From sequence record SRR33789315_95: a stretch of DNA of 64,000 nt; one strand, written 5' to 3'. The position numbers and the translations under genes were made by a program. Under the pieces are notes generated by a model. The model searched no databases. It was not told the DNA's origin and saw only the letters and a list, made by a program, of their open reading frames with translations. This document shows, piece by piece, positions 56,165 through 64,000 of this stretch (its first letter is position 1; every line of letters begins with the position of its first letter).

Positions 56165-56195
56165 CTTAATTAACACTTAAAACTACATTTTGAAT

Positions 56196-57566
56196 ATGAA
56201 AAATATTAACAAATTAATTGTGTTTGCACTTTTGGTTTTTATTGGAACCTTTTCTGCTAACGCACAGGATGAAAATAACCCGTGGGCTTTAAATTTTGGT
56301 ACTAACGCAGTTGATTTTTCATCTGCTGGAGGTGATGAATCATGGAACGCTGGGATGTTTGACGAATTTTTCAACACAGATCATTTTAATATACTTCCTT
56401 CTATAGGTTATTTAGAAGTAGGAAGATATGTAGGGAATGGTTTTAGTGTAAGTGCTATGGGAAATTTAAATCACATAGATATTTTAGGAGATGCCTCGGT
56501 TTCTCAATTTACTTACATGTCACTTGACGCTGGGGTTTCATACAGTTTTAAAGATATTTTAAAATCTAACTGGTTTGATCCATCATTAGGTGTAGGTGGT
56601 GGTTATACTTGGCTTGAAGATTGGAGACCTAATTCTGCAACTGGAAATGCTGCTCTTGGGTTTAAAATATTATTATCAGAATACTTTAACATAAACGTAA
56701 AATCAACTTACAAACACCCATTTAACGATAGAGGTTACAACCATTTTGTACATACAGTGGGTCTTGGTATCGTGTTTGGCGGTACAGATACTGATGGTGA
56801 TGGTATCTACGACAAAAATGATGAGTGTCCAGAAGTATTTGGTTTAGCTGCTTTTAACGGTTGCCCTGATACAGATGGTGACGGTATTAAAGATTCTTTA
56901 GATGCATGTCCTACTGTTGCTGGTCCTCCAGAATTAAACGGATGTCCTGATACTGATGGTGATGGTATTGCAGATAAAGATGATATGTGTCCTAATGTTG
57001 CTGGTCTAGCTGCTCTAGGTGGTTGTCCTGATGCTGATGGTGATGGTGTAAAAGATGGAGATGACAAATGTCCTAATGAAGCTGGTCCTGCAGAAAATGA
57101 CGGTTGCCCATATGTAGATACAGATGGTGATGGCGTTCTTGATAAAGATGATGACTGTCCAACTGTAGCTGGTCCTGTGGCAAATAATGGTTGCCCAGAA
57201 GTAACTGTTGAAGCTCTTGAGGAATTAAACATGCAAGTGCGTTCAGTTCTTTTTGATTTAAACAAAGCTAAAATTCGTCAAGAATCTGAAGAAACGCTAG
57301 ATGCTGTTGCAGATGCTATGAAAGCTTATCCTAATACAAGCTTCTTAGTAGAAGGGCACACAGATAGTACAGGTAGTGCTAAATACAACAAGCAATTGTC
57401 AAAAGAGCGTGCTGCCTCTGTTATGACCTATTTGGTAAATAAAGGAATAGATGCTGAAAGACTTTCTTCTGAAGGATTTGGTGAAGAAAGACCGGTAGCA
57501 AGTAATAATACCAATGCGGGTAGACAACAAAACAGACGTGTAGAGCTATCTCTTATTGAAGACTAG
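56196..57566 (+). CDS. OmpA family protein with thrombospondin type-3 Ca-binding repeats
   Basis: Signal peptide, beta-barrel, five DxDGDG...CP repeats, GHTD...LS..RA...NRRVE. Confidence 0.93.
56787..57197 (+). repeat. Five coding TSP3 repeats (~81-nt period)
   Basis: GATAC(T/A)GATGGTGA(T/C)GG-like units encoding D(T/A)DGDG..D..D.CP...G....GCP. Confidence 0.9.
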
Positions 57567-57589: not shown

Positions 57590-57616
57590 AAAACGCTCCA
57601 CAATGTGGGGCGTTTT
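57590..57616 (+). terminator. ompA terminator
   Basis: AAAACGCTCCAC-AAT-GTGGGGCGTTTT. Confidence 0.85.
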
Positions 57617-57629
57617 CTATTTTTATACA

Positions 57630-60344
57630 ATGACGACATTCATAGATGAGCTTAAACAATCACTTATCCAGGCCAACATCCCTTTTGAGAAACTTACGGT
57701 GGTTTTACCCTCAAAAAGAGCTGGAACTGTTTTAAAAAACAAACTTGTTCAAGAGATACCTTCAGAAAGTAGTTTTTTACCTCAAATCATAGGTATAGAA
57801 GAATTAATAGAGGACATGTCTGGTCTAAGTTCTTGCGATTCTTTAGAGCTTTTACTAGAGCTTTATTCGGTTTATGCACAGTATTCTACTCAAACCAATA
57901 AAGATTCTTTTTTAGAATTTATGAGTTGGGGCCAAACCTTACTGGCAGATTTTAATGAAATTGATCATTATTTAATAAACACAACTGATTTTTTCAACTA
58001 TTTAAAAGCGGTAAAAGACCTAAATCACTGGTCTCTTCAAGCAGATGAAAAACCCTTAATAGCAGATTATATTAAGTTTTGGCACACATTACCTGATTTG
58101 TATGCACAACTAAACAAGACACTTCTGGCCGAAAATAAAGGCTATCAAGGTATGTTGTATAGAAAAGCAGCAGAACGTGCTAATATTTATATTTCTGAAG
58201 AGCAAGGTCATTTTGTTTTTGCCGGTTTTAACGCTTTAAATGCGGCCGAGCAGCTCATTATTCAGGAATTTCTAGAGCAAAAAAAAGCTGATATCATTTG
58301 GGATATTGACACGCATTTTCTTTCAGAAAGCAATAATGCAGTAAGCCATTTTATTAAGAGTTATTATAGGAATTGGCCACAACTTAAAGATCAAAATCTC
58401 CAACAAATAGGCCGAAACAATTTCAATACTAACAAAACTATTTTCACTTATAGCGCTGCCCAGCAAATAGGCCAAGTAAAATGGGTGGGTAATTTGTTAG
58501 AAAACCAATCAACCGAAGAACTTCAACAAACCGCTGTGGTTTTAGGGGAAGAAAGTCAACTATTACCGCTTCTTAATTCGCTCCCAGAAAATGTTCAAGC
58601 GCTAAACGTAACTATGGGAATCCCATTAAAGCAAATTCCGGATACTGCATTTTATTCGGCTTTGTTTCAAATGCAGCAAAATAATAATACCTCACGTTAC
58701 CATTATAAAGATGTTCTCGCACTTATCAATCAGCCATTAACCAAAAGACTTTTGGGCACCTATTGTGACATTATTAAAACCCAATTGGTCAAAAACAACT
58801 ATACCTACATCCCTGTTCAAAAATTAATAGAGTTATGTGCTCCTATAGAAAACATAGCTAGCGCGCTATTTGCACTGTGGGAAAATAATTCGGGTACCGC
58901 ACTTTTACAGATTAACTTCTTAATTAAAGAACTTAAAAGCACCCACGCTACCCCAAACCGTTTTCTGCAAATTGAGTATCTCAATAGATTTGAAAAACTT
59001 TTTAGCAGACTACAAGAGCTCGTGCTCAAGTATTCCTTTATAAGCAGTGTTAAGGCACTCGCACTGTTTTATGAAAGTCTTCTAGCCGAAGAAACACTTG
59101 ATTTAATAGGAAGTCCCTACACGGGATTACAAATAATGGGTGTGCTAGAATCCAGAACTTTAGATTTTAAAAATGTTATTATAACTGCATTAAACGAAGG
59201 CACATTACCTTCTGGAAAAACACAAAACAGTTACATTCCTTTTGATCTTAAAGTAGAATATAAACTGCCTACTTACCGAGAAAAAGATTCCATTTATGCC
59301 TATCACTTTTTTAGGTTATTGCAGCGGGCAGAAAATGTTCATCTTTTATATAATAATCAAGCTGAAGGATTGTCTAGTGGTGAAAAAAGCCGCTTTATCC
59401 TACAACTCGAAGCTGACCAAACCGCAAATTTCAACTACAAAGAAATTGCTGTTGTAGCGCCTACTATACTAAAACAAACCCAGCTCAAGCACATTGAGAA
59501 AAGTCCAGCTATTCTAGAAAAATTGGCAGCTCATGCGCAATCTGGATTTTCGCCTTCGGCACTTACAACCTATATTAGAAACCCCTATGATTTTTATACT
59601 AGATATGTTTTAGGCGTAAAAGAAGTAGAAGAAGTAGAAGAAACCGTTGCTTTTAATACGTTGGGTACCGTTGTACATCAGGCGTTAGAAAATTTATATG
59701 ATCCTTTTTTAAATACCATGCTTTCAGTCCCCATTTTAGAGCAAATCTTAAAAAAAGTTCATCAGGAAGTACACCAGCAATTTGAAAAAGAATACGGACT
59801 AGAAAATCTTGAAACGGGAAAAAACCTCATTATTTTTAATGTCGCCAAGCAGTTTGTTATCAATTTCATTCAGATGGAAAAAAGAGCCATTGAAGACGGT
59901 AACACCATAGCCATTAAAGAGCTGGAAGCCAACTATAAAATAGGTTTCACGACTAAATTGCACAGCGTAAATCTGCGAGGTTCTATAGACCGAATAGATC
60001 TTTTTAATGATACACTGCGCATTATAGATTATAAAACCGGAAGAGTTGAGCCTGCACAATTAAAAATAAACGACTGGGATTTATTAATAGAAGACTATAC
60101 CTATTCTAAAGCTTTTCAAGTACTTAATTACGCCCTTTTATTATCTAAATCTGGGCTTCTTACTCCAAACACCGAAGCTGGTATTTTTTCTTTTAAAAAC
60201 ATAGGAAGCGGGTTTATGAAATTTAACGAAAATAAAAATTCATATATAACCGAAGAGGTGTTACAGCGTTTTGAAATTGAATTGGGTTTTTTAATCGATG
60301 AGATTTTAGATCCTGAAAAGCCTTTTATGGAAAAACTTACTTAA
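57630..60344 (+). CDS. addB: AddB-like inactive helicase + PD-(D/E)XK nuclease
   Basis: VLPSKRA, AGFNAL, MGVLESR, SPSAL, GSIDRID...DYKTG, QVLNY; start ATG 57630. Confidence 0.85.
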   Translation: MTTFIDELKQSLIQANIPFEKLTVVLPSKRAGTVLKNKLVQEIPSESSFLPQIIGIEELIEDMSGLSSCDSLELLLELYSVYAQYSTQTNKDSFLEFMSWGQTLLADFNEIDHYLINTTDFFNYLKAVKDLNHWSLQADEKPLIADYIKFWHTLPDLYAQLNKTLLAENKGYQGMLYRKAAERANIYISEEQGHFVFAGFNALNAAEQLIIQEFLEQKKADIIWDIDTHFLSESNNAVSHFIKSYYRNWPQLKDQNLQQIGRNNFNTNKTIFTYSAAQQIGQVKWVGNLLENQSTEELQQTAVVLGEESQLLPLLNSLPENVQALNVTMGIPLKQIPDTAFYSALFQMQQNNNTSRYHYKDVLALINQPLTKRLLGTYCDIIKTQLVKNNYTYIPVQKLIELCAPIENIASALFALWENNSGTALLQINFLIKELKSTHATPNRFLQIEYLNRFEKLFSRLQELVLKYSFISSVKALALFYESLLAEETLDLIGSPYTGLQIMGVLESRTLDFKNVIITALNEGTLPSGKTQNSYIPFDLKVEYKLPTYREKDSIYAYHFFRLLQRAENVHLLYNNQAEGLSSGEKSRFILQLEADQTANFNYKEIAVVAPTILKQTQLKHIEKSPAILEKLAAHAQSGFSPSALTTYIRNPYDFYTRYVLGVKEVEEVEETVAFNTLGTVVHQALENLYDPFLNTMLSVPILEQILKKVHQEVHQQFEKEYGLENLETGKNLIIFNVAKQFVINFIQMEKRAIEDGNTIAIKELEANYKIGFTTKLHSVNLRGSIDRIDLFNDTLRIIDYKTGRVEPAQLKINDWDLLIEDYTYSKAFQVLNYALLLSKSGLLTPNTEAGIFSFKNIGSGFMKFNENKNSYITEEVLQRFEIELGFLIDEILDPEKPFMEKLT

Positions 60345-60346
60345 GT

Positions 60347-61090
60347 TTAATCTTTACAAAAATACTTTGTAACGATATAGGGAGTGATGGGCTTAAGCGC
60401 TTTTCCAGTTTCAGGATGTAGCCCTAGTGTTGTGAAAATTTCAAGCGTTCCTTCAGGATTTTTTCCATACCAAGTTTTCACGTTTCCGTCAGGATTAAAG
60501 AATTGAATAGTACAATTGGGCTCTAATTTTTTAAACTTCAAAATACGGTCTTCTTTGTAAATTTTCAGTTTTCCTGCACTCAAAAGATCCTCGCTAAAAT
60601 CTGCTTCTTCATAATGATCTTTTTCCCAAATCATCCATTGTTGTTCTTCTTTAAATACAAAAACAGAAACGATGATCATTAAGCTTATGCCTAATAGTCC
60701 TATAAGTAAGTTGCCTTTATGCTTAATAAGCCAACTTTTTATAAAAAGAGGCTTAGTCGTTTGCTCCTTTTCAATATTCACAAAAGGGGCAACCTCATCC
60801 TTTTTAAGAGAACGTATAAAATCCTCATACGAGTTAAATTCTAAGTAGTTTAATAATGCGTTAATAACATCTAATTGAGCAATCCTTATGTCTTCTTTCT
60901 CATTTTTTAAAGCCTCATTATAGTAATCTCTTAATCGCTTTTCCCCAAACTTAAAATGCGCATTTTCAGAAATAGCATCAGAAATAGCTGTGGCCATAGC
61001 CGTCTTTGAGGGATTTTTATTCCCTTTTTTTAACTCTTCTCTTTCCGCTTTTTCAAAAGCCTGAAGTATCAATTTTTTATGACTCATCAT
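60347..61090 (-). CDS. Bitopic membrane protein: helical (HTH-like) N-domain, TM, small periplasmic C-domain
   Basis: One TM (LLIGLLGISLMIIVSVFVF); N-terminal helical region ending INALLNYLEFNSYEDF; C-terminal GLHPETGKALKPIT with two Cys. Confidence 0.7.
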   Translation of the reverse strand: MMSHKKLILQAFEKAEREELKKGNKNPSKTAMATAISDAISENAHFKFGEKRLRDYYNEALKNEKEDIRIAQLDVINALLNYLEFNSYEDFIRSLKKDEVAPFVNIEKEQTTKPLFIKSWLIKHKGNLLIGLLGISLMIIVSVFVFKEEQQWMIWEKDHYEEADFSEDLLSAGKLKIYKEDRILKFKKLEPNCTIQFFNPDGNVKTWYGKNPEGTLEIFTTLGLHPETGKALKPITPYIVTKYFCKD

Positions 61091-61158
61091 GGTGAGTTAG
61101 CGTATTCTTTTAGATTTTAAATCTATCAGAAAAATCTCGGAAATACATTAGAATTTGA

Positions 61159-61196
61159 TTTCCAGCATGTTTCCAAAACCTTTCCCACTGCTTTCC
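61159..61196. promoter_or_regulatory. Four TTTCC direct repeats at 11-bp period (putative regulator binding array)
   Basis: TTTCC starts at 61159, 61170, 61181 and 61192. Confidence 0.7.
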
Positions 61197-61295
61197 AATA
61201 CTATTTTACAAATCTCCTTTCATTTGTTTCAGAATTATTCACACCCCATATGCAAATGGGTTTTGCAATGTGTTCAAGTTCTAAAAATGGAGTTG

Positions 61296-61437
61296 TGGTT
61301 GATGTTGATTTGACCATTTGAGAAGTAATCAAAGCTTCATCTGCTACACTCCTACTTCTCAATCGAAGAGAGACGTCTCTTTCCATTAAACAATGCGATA
61401 ATCTGTCGTGAAAAACTGAAAAAAATAATTCGGACAG
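61296..61437 (+). other. Multi-hairpin structured 5' leader (candidate cis-regulatory RNA)
   Basis: Stems TGGTTGA/TTGACCA, TTGAGAAGTA/TACTTCTCAA, palindrome AGAGACGTCTCT, CTGTC/GACAG. Confidence 0.5.
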
Positions 61438-61468
61438 CCACAGGTATGTCCAAATAAAACATACAAAA

Positions 61469-61627
61469 ATGAAAAAAATAACACTTATTCTATTTACGGT
61501 TTTCCTCAATATAGGACTCTATTCTTGTACTCCAGAAGTTATTAAAGAAAATACTATGCCTCAAGCCTGTTGTGGAGAAGATATTCCTTTTCCACCACCT
61601 CCTACAGATAGTATTCCTGATAACTAA
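61469..61627 (+). CDS. Small (52 aa) lipoprotein/peptide absent from the ORF track: MKKITLILFTVFLNIGLYSCTPEVIKENTMPQACCGEDIPFPPPPTDSIPDN
   Basis: Hand translation; A-rich context before ATG; MKK + hydrophobic core + lipobox LYSC; TAA at 61625-61627, 29 nt before the kinase ATG. Confidence 0.85.
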   Translation: MKKITLILFTVFLNIGLYSCTPEVIKENTMPQACCGEDIPFPPPPTDSIPDN

Positions 61628-61656
61628 TATCTTTTGATTAATTGTATTTTAGAGGA

Positions 61657-63327
61657 ATGGAAATCAAAAAGAAATCATTCCTCTTTTTTTTTATAAGAAT
61701 AGTTCTTTTATTCTCTTCCACATATGGTGTTCATGCAAACAAGTTAGTATTCCAAAAAACAGATAGTGGTGCCTATTATTACAAAGTAATTATAGAAGCT
61801 GAAAATCGCAACGATTTCCAAAAGGCAATTTCTTACTACTTAAAACAGTATCAAAAAAATATTGAGGAGAAAAAGACTTCTAAAGCCGCCAACGACTTAG
61901 AAATATTGGCAACTGGTAAATACAATGTCGGAAGTTTTAATGAAAGTGAGCAGTTCCTTATTTCTGCGGCAAAACTTTATGCAAAAGACACTACAAATAA
62001 TGCAAATTTAGCCAGGAAACGAATATATACTCGGTTAGGTATTATTTATCGAAATCTTAAATATTATGATAAAAGCCTAGAGTTATACAAAACCGCTTTG
62101 AAAACTGCTAAAACAAAATCAGACAGCCTATACATTATCAATAACATTTCAAATGTTTTGCGCGAAAAGGGCAGTTATCATCAAGCCATTGATACCTTAA
62201 AATACATAGTACATTCTACAGGTCTCTTAAATAATAACATATTAAAAGCCTTGGCCTTGGACAATCTGGGGTATACTCAACTTGAAATTTCAGATAAGAA
62301 TAGTTTACATAACCTTAATGAATCACTTAAAATAAGAATGCTCATTAAGGATTCGTTGGGTTTATTTTCTAGTTATAGGCATTTATCTATTTACCATAGA
62401 AAGATAGGCGACAAAAAGGTGGCTTCTGATATGGCAAAAAATGCTTTTGTTATAGCTAAAAAACTTAAAGACCCAAATTACGAATTTGAAGCCCTGGGTT
62501 TACTTGCTGAACTGAGCCCTGACAAAAATTTAAAAAGATTCAAATTGCTAAACGACAGCCTAACGCTAGCAGATCACGAGCAAACAAATAAATATGCTAC
62601 ATTAAAATATGATGTAGAAAAAGAAAAAGAACAGACTCAAATAGCCAAATTACAAAGTGAAAAAGAAAAGCAACGAAAAACAGTTTACTTAGCTTTAACA
62701 CTAATTCTCACGCTTATTTTTAGCGCAATAACCGCACTCATCCTTTCTAACCGTAAGAAAAAACAACTTAAAACCATATTTGATACCGAAACTCGTATAT
62801 CTAAAAAATTACATGACGAGTTGGCAAATGATACTTTTCAGGTCATGGCTCAACTTCAAACACTAAAAGAAATTCCCAAAGAAATAATTGATGATCTTGA
62901 TAAAATTTATACTAAAACTCGTGACATATCAAAAGATCATAACCCACTATACAAAGACATTAACTTTTATGAGCAACTTACTACAATGTTGGCCTCTTAT
63001 AAAAGAGCAGATTTTAATGTGATGGTTAGAAATGACCAAAAAATAGAATGGGACTCCCTAAAATATTTAAGAAAGAAAACCATTTATATCGTGCTAAAAG
63101 AGTTAATGACCAACAATAGAAAACATAGTCAATCAAATTTTGCCTTAATAACATTTAGCCAAAAAGGTAAAAAACTAAATATTATTTATAAAGATGACGG
63201 TATAGGTGGAATATTTTCTAAAAGCAATGGGCTTCAAAATGTGGAATCCCGCATAGAAGCCCTAAACGGAACACTTACATTTGATGCTGAACCAAATAAT
63301 GGTTTTAAGGTTATAATCCAGATATAA
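61657..63327 (+). CDS. TPR-repeat sensor histidine kinase (HisKA_3 type)
   Basis: N-terminal signal/TM, TPRs (IYTRLGIIYR, IINNISNVLR, ALDNLGY), TM, H-box RISKKLHDE, ELMTN, DDGIG, GLQN; start ATG 61657 (TTG 61642 alternative). Confidence 0.92.
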   Translation: MEIKKKSFLFFFIRIVLLFSSTYGVHANKLVFQKTDSGAYYYKVIIEAENRNDFQKAISYYLKQYQKNIEEKKTSKAANDLEILATGKYNVGSFNESEQFLISAAKLYAKDTTNNANLARKRIYTRLGIIYRNLKYYDKSLELYKTALKTAKTKSDSLYIINNISNVLREKGSYHQAIDTLKYIVHSTGLLNNNILKALALDNLGYTQLEISDKNSLHNLNESLKIRMLIKDSLGLFSSYRHLSIYHRKIGDKKVASDMAKNAFVIAKKLKDPNYEFEALGLLAELSPDKNLKRFKLLNDSLTLADHEQTNKYATLKYDVEKEKEQTQIAKLQSEKEKQRKTVYLALTLILTLIFSAITALILSNRKKKQLKTIFDTETRISKKLHDELANDTFQVMAQLQTLKEIPKEIIDDLDKIYTKTRDISKDHNPLYKDINFYEQLTTMLASYKRADFNVMVRNDQKIEWDSLKYLRKKTIYIVLKELMTNNRKHSQSNFALITFSQKGKKLNIIYKDDGIGGIFSKSNGLQNVESRIEALNGTLTFDAEPNNGFKVIIQI

Positions 63328-63993
63328 ATGTTTAAAAGGATACTTATTGCAGAAGATTTTGGGAGTATTACTAAAATGCTTCAGGATCTTTTCAACGAAT
63401 TAGGTGCTGATCAGGTTGATTTTACGCAATACTGTGATGATGCCTATTTAAAAATTAAAAGTGCTATTAATAAGAAAGAGCCCTATGATTTGTTAATTGC
63501 AGATCTCTCCTTTAAGCCAGACTACCGTACCCAAAAATATCCCTCTGGTGAAGATTTGATAAAGGCAGTACGGCAAGAAAATCTGGAGATGAAAATAATT
63601 GTTTTTTCTATGGAAGAAAAATTACAACGGGTAAAAAGCCTTATTATAGAGCAACAAGTAAACGCTTACGTTTGTAAAGGTCGCAATGGGGTAAAGGAGC
63701 TTAAAGAAGCTGTTAAATACTGCATCCAAAATAAAACGTACCTGTCTCCACAAGTTTCTCAAGCTTTAAATAAAACTAGAACTCTAGAAATTCAAGATTA
63801 TGATATTGAGCTCATGCGCTATCTGGCAGATGGATATTCTAATAAAGAAATTAGTTTACGTTTTGAAAAACTCAAAATGAGTCCCAGTAGTGTAAGTTCT
63901 ATTGAGAAACGATTAAACAGACTTCGCATTCAGTTTAGTGCAAACAATGCCACTCATCTTGTGGCCATTGTAAAAGATTTAGGATTGATATAA
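63328..63993 (+). CDS. Response regulator, REC + LuxR/NarL-like HTH
   Basis: ILIAED, phosphoacceptor ADL, FS, CKG; GYSNKEIS...SSIEKRLNRLR...HLVAIVKDLGLI; abuts the kinase. Confidence 0.92.
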   Translation: MFKRILIAEDFGSITKMLQDLFNELGADQVDFTQYCDDAYLKIKSAINKKEPYDLLIADLSFKPDYRTQKYPSGEDLIKAVRQENLEMKIIVFSMEEKLQRVKSLIIEQQVNAYVCKGRNGVKELKEAVKYCIQNKTYLSPQVSQALNKTRTLEIQDYDIELMRYLADGYSNKEISLRFEKLKMSPSSVSSIEKRLNRLRIQFSANNATHLVAIVKDLGLI

Positions 63994-64000
63994 TTTAGCA

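Follow-up and report, generated by a model that had tools for sequence, protein, structure and literature searches.

The question raised by this locus is whether a small lipoprotein precursor encoded directly ahead of a sensor histidine kinase takes part in signalling and, if so, as a diffusible or as a tethered peptide. The gene lies in a stretch of DNA of 64,000 nucleotides (nt) from sequence record SRR33789315_95, the whole of which is called the window below. A reading of the letters alone (hereafter the sequence-only reading) had proposed a candidate peptide-signalling system at positions 60347 to 63993, made up of a small lipopeptide, a kinase with tetratricopeptide repeats (TPR), a response regulator and a divergent membrane-anchored regulator, and working as a quorum-sensing or envelope-monitoring circuit. 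Comparison across metagenome and genome sequences established that the locus is a conserved signalling module common to many related marine and soil bacteria.

The order in the window is the bitopic membrane protein gene on the minus strand, a 378-nt intergenic region, and then the peptide, TPR kinase and regulator genes, all on the plus strand. The listing of open reading frames (ORFs) bears out all four genes as proposed, including the 29 nt between the peptide stop codon and the kinase ATG (61657) and the regulator whose ATG (63328) abuts the kinase stop codon. The features of the locus are as follows.

60347..61090, minus strand: bitopic membrane protein, 247 amino acids (aa); from the ORF, hydropathy and an AlphaFold2 (AF2) model
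61139..61196, no strand assigned: phased repeat array in the divergent promoter region; from a window scan and 44 aligned intergenic regions
61219..61226, plus strand: TTCATTTG, putative -7 box of the promoter of the peptide operon; from likeness to the Flavobacterium sigma-A consensus
61231..61384, plus strand: 5' domain of the leader RNA (helices P1, P2/P3, P4, P6 and P7); from covariance model R1, 94 bits, E 8e-17
61385..61468, plus strand: 3' part of the leader RNA (P8, P9, P10, then an A/U-rich stretch to the ATG); from sequence conservation and helix counts
61469..61627, plus strand: small lipoprotein precursor, 52 aa; from the ORF listing and an alignment of 52 sequences
61657..63327, plus strand: sensor histidine kinase, 556 aa from the ATG; from Pfam and NCBIfam matches, an alignment of 38 homologues and hydropathy
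63328..63993, plus strand: response regulator, 221 aa, with a receiver (REC) domain and a LuxR/GerE-type helix-turn-helix (HTH; DUF5932); from Pfam and 41 homologues

Conservation of the peptide gene and of the module

Only two relatives of the peptide were present in a large protein collection. Small ORFs are often missed by gene calling, and DNA was therefore scanned for the peptide instead. A metagenome scan with an alignment of three peptides yielded 12 loci, and the metagenome and genome loci together provided 52 peptide genes, 51 of them distinct. The family follows a single plan, with MKK, a hydrophobic core containing T-V-F-L-N, a lipobox Cys preceded by Ser, and T/N/S-P, after which come a variable acidic linker of 8-15 residues, (P)QACCG, acidic residues, Ile or Leu, 2-13 prolines and a short Gly- or Asp-rich tail. 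In the window peptide, the MKK start and a hydrophobic core with TVFLN lead to the lipobox L-Y-S-C20, and the linker, which is acidic and variable, is followed by P-Q-A-C-C-G-E-D and a run of prolines. Its mature form would comprise 33 aa, and mature homologues have 31-47 aa (about 36 is typical) with a net charge of -2 to -15. Of the 51 distinct peptides, 44 have a Cys-Cys pair flanked by acidic residues, and 39 have a run of 5-13 prolines near the stop codon.

Mean pairwise identity among the 51 distinct genes was 0.615, 0.693 and 0.442 at codon positions 1, 2 and 3, respectively, with the third position the most variable, and the conserved Ser, Gly and Pro columns are written with four codons each. 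Judged from this codon pattern, the 52-aa ORF is a real gene under protein-level selection. Lipoprotein precursors are commonly recognized by a PROSITE PS51257-type pattern of N-terminal basic residues, a hydrophobic core and a Cys at position 15-35. It is matched by the window peptide and by 48 of the 51 distinct homologues; the lipobox Cys is present in all 51 and the preceding Ser in 50. The peptide has the make-up of a lipoprotein, i.e. a substrate of Lgt and LspA, and its lipidation is predicted. The earlier designation of this ORF as a lipoprotein gene is thus upheld by 51 distinct homologues, by the lipobox and by selection on the protein. Pfam contains no match to the peptide, and NCBIfam returned a single match at chance level (E 0.036).

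Variants of the peptide were encountered alongside the common form. Each residue of the signal-peptide core T-V-F-L-N (window positions 61478-61510, residues 4-14) is kept in 63-78% of the 51 homologues, a conservation equal to that of the mature QACCG motif and unusual for the hydrophobic core of a signal peptide. Metagenome contig L013 carries two tandem peptide genes of 54 and 58 aa (L013:596-1013) with near-identical upstream sequence, and no leader RNA, bitopic gene or kinase adjoins them within the 2.2-kb contig. At four loci (L086, L088, L089 and L094) the peptides are without Cys-Cys, being of the G-D-D-G-E-I-L-P-P-E type with long acidic tails, and they accompany kinases of 632-655 aa whose extra length lies in the N-terminal sensor region. 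This shift of peptide type with kinase sensor length fits coupling between the two proteins and, equally, shared descent of the sequences.

Linkage of the module is found under three independent selections of sequences: by peptide, by bitopic protein and by RNA. Among the 12 metagenome contigs selected by peptide, a kinase homologue with 32-46% identity is encoded downstream in 10, the remaining two being L006, with 424 nt of contig left, and L013, which has none. A divergent upstream bitopic homologue is present in nine; the contigs of L004 and L005 end early, and L013 again has none. The regulator is present wherever the contig extends (7 loci).

A search with the bitopic protein gave 11 matches, two of them full-length, in 401 genomes sampled evenly across the class, and 100 matching genomes (E<=1e-5) among 401 genomes of the family to which genome G207 belongs. 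In the sampled genomes, a sampling that shows presence and not absence, the module is confined to one Bacteroidia family, and this host clade is probably Flavobacteriaceae. Stretches of 8 kb were taken from 40 of the 100 genomes, namely those with the best near-full-length matches together with G419 (C-terminal half only), excluding matches on short contigs, those that were split or incomplete, and the weakest. A small lipoprotein ORF stands divergent to the bitopic gene in 38 of the 40, the exceptions being L083, which has a truncated bitopic gene with the kinase directly adjoining, and L084. Kinase and regulator genes come straight after the peptide in 33 of these 38 loci. Two of the other five, L056 and L060, have the kinase-regulator genes beyond the bitopic gene (the L056 stretch holds only the 3' part of the regulator), and L073, L090 and L093 have no kinase-regulator genes within the fetched stretch.

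Selection by RNA used R1, a covariance model of the leader RNA described in the next section. It matched 28 of 151 family genomes, in single copy except in G510 (two), and always adjoining a bitopic homologue. At 13 previously unseen RNA loci the kinase was found downstream in 12, the bitopic homologue in 12 (tblastn) and the peptide in 12 (ORF reading). Across homologues the kinase starts 20-82 nt 3' of the peptide gene, so that the gap is short and conserved in size. Linkage of the small lipoprotein gene with the TPR kinase, the regulator and the divergent bitopic gene thus extends over dozens of species.

In genome G490 (L073, L125) about 700 kb separate the kinase-regulator pair from the bitopic gene, the RNA and the peptide, and all of these parts are kept. 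The gene immediately before the pair is, by eye, acetyl-CoA-synthetase-like, and neither peptide nor leader stands upstream of the kinase. Retention of a peptide unlinked from the kinase argues for a function in trans. Furthermore, the peptide stays by the bitopic gene and the RNA when the kinase is elsewhere (L056, L060 and L073/G490), suggesting that the kinase may not be its only or main partner.

Leader RNA and divergent promoter region

The RNA between the putative promoter and the peptide gene is a well-supported new structured motif of about 240 nt with two pseudoknots, as judged from covariation among its relatives. In its 5' domain, P1 surrounds an H-type pseudoknot, P2/P3. It is followed by a long interrupted stem, P4, whose apical loop pairs with sequence 3' of the stem to form P6 (61318-61327 with 61353-61362, GGGAAGU with ACUUCCC), and by a short hairpin, P7, at about 61366-61382. 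The 3' part contains a variable hairpin recognized by eye (P8), P9 (61416-61420 with 61429-61433) and P10 (61432-61436 with 61447-61451), the last two having a GG in common.

The structure was drawn by hand on a plain, unfitted MAFFT alignment of 27 leaders. In that alignment 83.6% of cells were paired, compared with 39-53% when the partners were slid, and double changes occurred at 34 of 47 pairs; none of 500 shuffles reached the observed values. RNAalifold applied to the raw MAFFT alignment recovered P6 and P7 alone. A further helix in the variable apical region, P5, was dropped because it was paired in just 49-56%.

Model R1 comprises 151 positions with the pseudoknots left out and was run over 53 sources. 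In the window it had one match, 61231-61384. Over the 53 sources it had 48 matches at E<=0.0036, each directly upstream of the peptide and on the peptide strand; L012 and L088 matched weakly, and among these sources no match was found in L083 and L084, both of which are without the peptide, or in L013. An alignment of 62 R1 matches was fitted to the model for the nested helices. In it, 87.4% of cells were paired (40-49% when slid), 40 of 44 pairs had double changes, and 386 cells were changed on both sides, compared with 114 +/- 9.5 after shuffling; again none of 500 shuffles reached the observed values. The two pseudoknot helices, which are outside the model, were paired in 81.4% and 95.4% of cells, and one P6 pair is GC in 35 leaders and AU in 27. 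The structured leader suspected from the window alone is therefore a conserved RNA with compensatory changes, and its many G-U pairs agree with the peptide-sense strand.

Helices P9 and P10 were paired in 76% of cells (23-44% when slid), which is weaker support than that of the 5' domain helices, and an alternative P9/P10 register was rejected as no better than shuffles. A U-rich tail follows P7 in 33 of the 62 leaders and is absent from that of the window. In likeness to riboswitches, this is a long conserved leader at a predicted 5' end, with helices and pseudoknots that covary and, in about half of the leaders, a U-tailed hairpin. Rfam 15 (cmscan, E<=1) gave no family matching the leader in the window (60000-64000) or in five further loci. 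Matches to SpF39, a Streptococcus small RNA, at the junction of the peptide stop and the kinase start (window 61606-61689 and L003:1279-1387) scored 30.5 and 37.2 bits against a gathering threshold of 60 and were set aside as composition-driven chance. A riboswitch-like RNA ahead of a lipopeptide and two-component operon was not found in the literature searched. Because its gene association is narrow and consistent, an effector of the leader can be sought.

Upstream of the leader is an array of phased words. On the bitopic side there are GGAAA-type words, one at 61139-61143 and a degenerate second copy near 61150, followed by four TTTCC words at exact 11-nt steps (61159, 61170, 61181 and 61192; span 61159-61196). 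The four-word array occurs once in the whole 64 kb and in none of 100 shuffles. In most of the 44 aligned intergenic regions a pair of GGAAA-type words precedes three or four TTTCC(A) words at this position, all of them spaced by 11 nt. The phased repeats of the sequence-only reading were thus recovered as a unique array in the window and a conserved one across loci, and they are probably an operator.

The words themselves vary among lineages. They are absent as TTTCC from five distinct loci (L008, L079, L080, L081 and L085, or six with L071, which is identical to L008), and the same layout can be built from other words, namely TTGAC in L008/L071 and [AG]GACA with TGTC in L080 and L085. The loci without TTTCC encode a distinct subtype of the bitopic N-domain, with 45% identity inside the group and 25% to other loci, and their regulators retain the common recognition helix. 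They are scattered on a quick kinase tree, on which the label needs at least five changes. Because the repeat word tracks the N-domain subtype while the regulator helix is constant, the comparison suggests that the HTH-like domain of the bitopic protein, and not the regulator, reads the phased words.

The putative -7 box, TTCATTTG, stands about 20 nt downstream of the phased words. Across 43 loci T3, T4 and G5 of its ATTTG are invariant or nearly so, and a box of this type lies 182-256 nt, in most cases 240-250 nt, ahead of the peptide ATG. In PMC9723704, Flavobacterium sigma-A promoters are described as having a -7 box TAnnTTTG at -12 to -5, and the median 5' untranslated region is given as 24 nt, in comparison with which some 240 nt would be exceptional for a leader. 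From the likeness of the box, we infer that transcription of the peptide operon starts just after TTCATTTG. A scan of sigma-70 promoters and terminators stayed at chance (13 vs 14.4 and 2 vs 1.9, respectively), the method being ill-suited to Bacteroidota promoters.

Kinase, regulator and bitopic protein

From its N-terminus, the kinase comprises a signal-like segment (residues 1-27), a TPR domain predicted to be periplasmic (28-340), one transmembrane segment (343-365), a HisKA_3-type H-box with H386 and an ATPase domain. An alternative start is TTG at 61642; all 38 aligned homologues begin with a signal-like MK..SFLFF that matches the ATG at 61657. TPR_12 of Pfam matches residues 128-187 (E 3.9e-10), and the signal-like N-terminus together with a single later transmembrane segment in the hydropathy profile predicts that the TPR region is extracytoplasmic, as the sequence-only reading had it. 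HisKA_3 (E 0.064) and HATPase_c (E 0.012) both remained below Pfam cut-offs, and NCBIfam matched cores of the UhpB, LiaS and MctS types, with E of 1e-9 to 5e-8 for UhpB and LiaS. Residues H386, D387, N391, N486, D513, G515 and G517, which belong to an H-box of the HDxxxN/Q type and to the N and G boxes of the ATPase domain, are invariant in the 38 homologues.

The regulator matches DUF5932 with 25.8 bits, over the Pfam cut-off of 23.7, Response_reg with 29.7 bits against a cut-off of 30.2 (E 7.5e-7) and GerE under the cut-off (E 0.0048). D10, D59 and K117, which represent the acidic pocket, phospho-Asp and Lys of a REC domain, are invariant in all 41 regulator homologues. By these residues and domains the pair is a two-component system of the HisKA_3/NarL class with its catalytic residues intact. 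Each of five genomes has one strong orthologue of the kinase, and a contig scan with the kinase as query found only two distant Prolixibacteraceae loci, matching its ATPase end. A second, distant kinase paralogue of 655 aa with its own regulator is encoded at L128 (G207:C1:695571-699950). The 48-aa ORF ahead of it has an acidic Gly-rich tail and no signal peptide, and could be either a decayed form of the peptide gene or a chance occurrence.

The bitopic protein is divided into a cytoplasmic N-domain (residues 1 to about 100), a transmembrane segment (126-146) and a periplasmic C-domain (147-247). That segment is its sole hydrophobic one, and the gene is divergent in other loci too, in agreement with its description from the window as a divergent bitopic protein. 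No family was matched in Pfam (E<=0.1) or NCBIfam. An AF2 model from a 45-sequence alignment had a predicted local distance difference test (pLDDT) score of 91.4, with the N-domain modelled as five helices. The best VIA-align matches of the N-domain among 48,161 chains were XRE/Cro-type HTHs at middling Z of 5.0-5.7, with NHTF, CapH, C.Esp1396I, HipB, SinR and the P22 c2 and 434 repressors as structural neighbours; Foldseek with the whole protein gave nothing at E<=0.001. The nearest Atlas cluster was automatically named 'Helix-turn-helix domain-containing protein' (score 0.97). On these models the N-domain looks XRE-HTH-like.

The periplasmic C-domain is the most conserved part of the protein, with W155, H225-P226 and two Cys. 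Folded alone, it reached a pLDDT of 94.2 and a predicted template modelling (pTM) score of 0.81. Against solved structures its best VIA-wide Z was 2.6 and its best Foldseek E 1.3, with no match in the PDB. The domain is thus confidently predicted and, as modelled, resembles no solved structure. At loci L017-L025 and in many of the matched family genomes it ends longer proteins (frames of about 290-450 aa) with unmatched N-terminal parts. This placement at the end of longer proteins points to a mobile domain with a wider spread in the class.

A layout of this kind is familiar from ToxR and CadC, which have a cytoplasmic N-terminal DNA-binding domain, one transmembrane segment and a periplasmic sensor; their DNA-binding domains are OmpR-type winged helices. 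RodZ, in turn, carries an XRE-type HTH at its N-terminus. The bitopic protein shares with ToxR and CadC the N-terminal DNA-binding-like domain, the single transmembrane segment and a periplasmic domain with two Cys, and differs in that its N-domain resembles XRE/Cro HTHs, at middling Z only, where ToxR and CadC have OmpR-type winged helices.

Possible roles of the lipopeptide

The lipobox argues for a tethered and not a diffusible peptide. Of the two circuits offered by the sequence-only reading, envelope monitoring therefore fits better, and diffusible quorum sensing is unlikely. We give an even chance to an analogy with accessory lipoproteins, according to which the module would be an envelope-monitoring circuit with a tethered accessory lipopeptide and an added layer of RNA control. 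The peptide would be lipidated at Cys20 and held in the periplasm, where it would act as an accessory co-sensor or ligand, much as QseG does for QseE and NlpE for CpxA. Both the TPR domain and the mature lipopeptide are predicted to be periplasmic, so contact between them is topologically possible. TPR domains bind extended acidic or polyproline peptides in other systems. Here the extended acidic, proline-rich tail would be bound by the kinase in its TPR groove, by the bitopic protein through its periplasmic domain, or by both. Kinase output would then depend on how abundant the peptide is, on its membrane sorting, or on the state of its vicinal cysteines with respect to redox or metal. The bitopic protein would read the phased GGAAA/TTTCC words and control the divergent promoters, and the leader RNA would control synthesis of peptide and kinase in cis in a riboswitch- or attenuator-like manner.

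The closest known arrangement is QseE-QseG-QseF of Enterobacteriaceae, in which the lipoprotein gene shares one operon with the kinase and the regulator. According to PMC6075780 and PMC12691602, the lipoprotein QseG contacts the periplasmic domain of QseE and controls kinase activity. Likewise, PMC6538781 describes how, in the NlpE-Cpx system, sorting or redox state of the lipoprotein reports on the envelope to the inner-membrane kinase system. Genetic linkage of the kind seen with accessory lipoproteins is present here as well, the kinase gene coming directly after the peptide in 33 of 38 loci from genomes and in 10 of 12 from metagenomes. Differences from QseEGF are considerable: the peptide has about 33-47 mature residues, appears disordered, acidic and proline-rich, and bears no sequence relation to QseG, while the kinase sensor is of TPR type, the regulator is of LuxR type, and a divergent membrane-bound HTH-like protein and a leader RNA are added. 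The proteins are likewise not homologous to those of NlpE-CpxA or RcsF-IgaA-Rcs, the peptide being without a folded domain and the module belonging to one Bacteroidia family. RcsF has a proline-rich linker and cysteines, and RcsB is among the best NCBIfam matches of the regulator (E 5.6e-7, far below the cut-off). By analogy, signalling by this module may be regarded as a variant of the accessory-lipoprotein two-component type, to which a leader RNA and a periplasmic domain without known relatives are joined.

Several observations weigh against a tethered co-sensor or against parts of that proposal. The peptide is not homologous to QseG, NlpE or RcsF. Its sequence is equally that of a periplasm-facing and of a surface-flipped lipopeptide, and it could be the output of the system and not its input. 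About 7 of the 51 peptides are without Cys-Cys, so that cysteine chemistry cannot be universal. The link between repeat word and N-domain subtype covers few lineages only, and assignment of the N-domain as an HTH comes from middling structural Z of 5.0-5.7 with no Pfam match. Lastly, a U-rich tail of P7 in only about half of the leaders, and none in the window, weakens an attenuator mechanism.

The lipopeptide as output, i.e. a small envelope lipoprotein (e.g. metal- or redox-active through Cys-Cys) that is co-transcribed with the regulators and does not signal to them, is an unlikely alternative for which there is nevertheless a case. The peptide is the first gene of the operon, CC with flanking acidic residues occurs in 44 of the 51 peptides, and its linkage with the kinase is looser than that with the bitopic gene and the RNA. 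Against these stand its association with two periplasm-facing sensors across more than 60 loci, the lack of any other conserved structural gene in the module, and the pairing of CC-less peptides with the 632-655 aa kinases of L086, L088, L089 and L094. A self-signalling circuit, in which the lipopeptide or its released signal peptide is the ligand of both the TPR kinase and the bitopic regulator and is gated by a riboswitch-like RNA, is quite improbable. If true, it would represent an autocrine or quorum-like peptide system outside Firmicutes and new to Bacteroidota, together with a new orphan riboswitch class.

Diffusible quorum sensing would have the TPR kinase sense a released C-terminal fragment or a cleaved signal peptide, comparable to enterococcal pheromones. 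The peptide-kinase-regulator cassette order is that of such systems, the signal-peptide core T-V-F-L-N is unusually conserved (63-78% of 51), and L013 has two tandem peptide genes. We nonetheless consider this reading very unlikely, because the lipobox in 48 of 51 peptides predicts a membrane-tethered product, the conserved module includes no exporter, processing protease or Opp-type importer, and the mature part, at 31-47 aa, is long as well as highly acidic and low in complexity. Comparison with the named families, to which the sequence-only reading had appealed, points the same way. RRNPP proteins (Rap, NprR, PlcR, PrgX and AimR) are cytoplasmic TPR receptors fused to HTH or phosphatase domains that sense re-imported oligopeptides, and agr and comCDE combine a dedicated exporter or protease with a polytopic kinase and a LytTR regulator. 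The module resembles them in that a TPR domain could receive a peptide and in its gene order. Membership of RRNPP is ruled out by a TPR region that is extracytoplasmic and fused to a kinase, and membership of agr/comCDE by a single membrane span after the sensor in a kinase that is not of the polytopic peptide-sensing type, by the LuxR-type regulator and by the lack of a conserved exporter or protease.

There is equally little to be said for the small ORF acting mainly as a cis leader peptide, in which ribosome pausing at prolines dependent on elongation factor P (EF-P) would set translation or transcription of the kinase: runs of 5-13 prolines near the stop in 39 of 51 peptides, the short kinase gap of conserved size and the place of the ORF at the end of a long regulatory leader all suit it, but the signal peptide, lipobox and QACCG are conserved as protein sequence while their codons vary synonymously, L056, L060, L073, L090 and L093 retain the peptide gene with no kinase following it, and the G490 kinase has no such ORF upstream.

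Signal inputs of Bacteroidota two-component systems are poorly understood, and TPR-sensor kinases are common there and uncharacterised. The module is a compact and testable case, in which a tethered peptide of about 36 residues meets two candidate receptors and both the operator and the RNA are defined, and the bitopic periplasmic domain adds a confidently predicted fold unlike any solved structure. If the tethered peptide is a co-sensor, accessory-lipoprotein signalling of the QseG/NlpE kind would reach a new phylum with a minimal, disordered ligand. A literature search returned nothing on the module, the peptide family or DUF5932; the supplementary list of structured 5' regions belonging to PMC9723704 could hold a related leader.

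Two genes upstream of the module in the window are not kept beside it in other loci. One (56190-57566) encodes a protein of 458 aa in which, as judged by eye, numerous D-x-D-G-D-G repeats are joined to an OmpA-like C-terminus, and the other (57603-60344) a 913-aa protein of the PD-(D/E)XK nuclease family (PDDEXK_1, E 2.9e-25).

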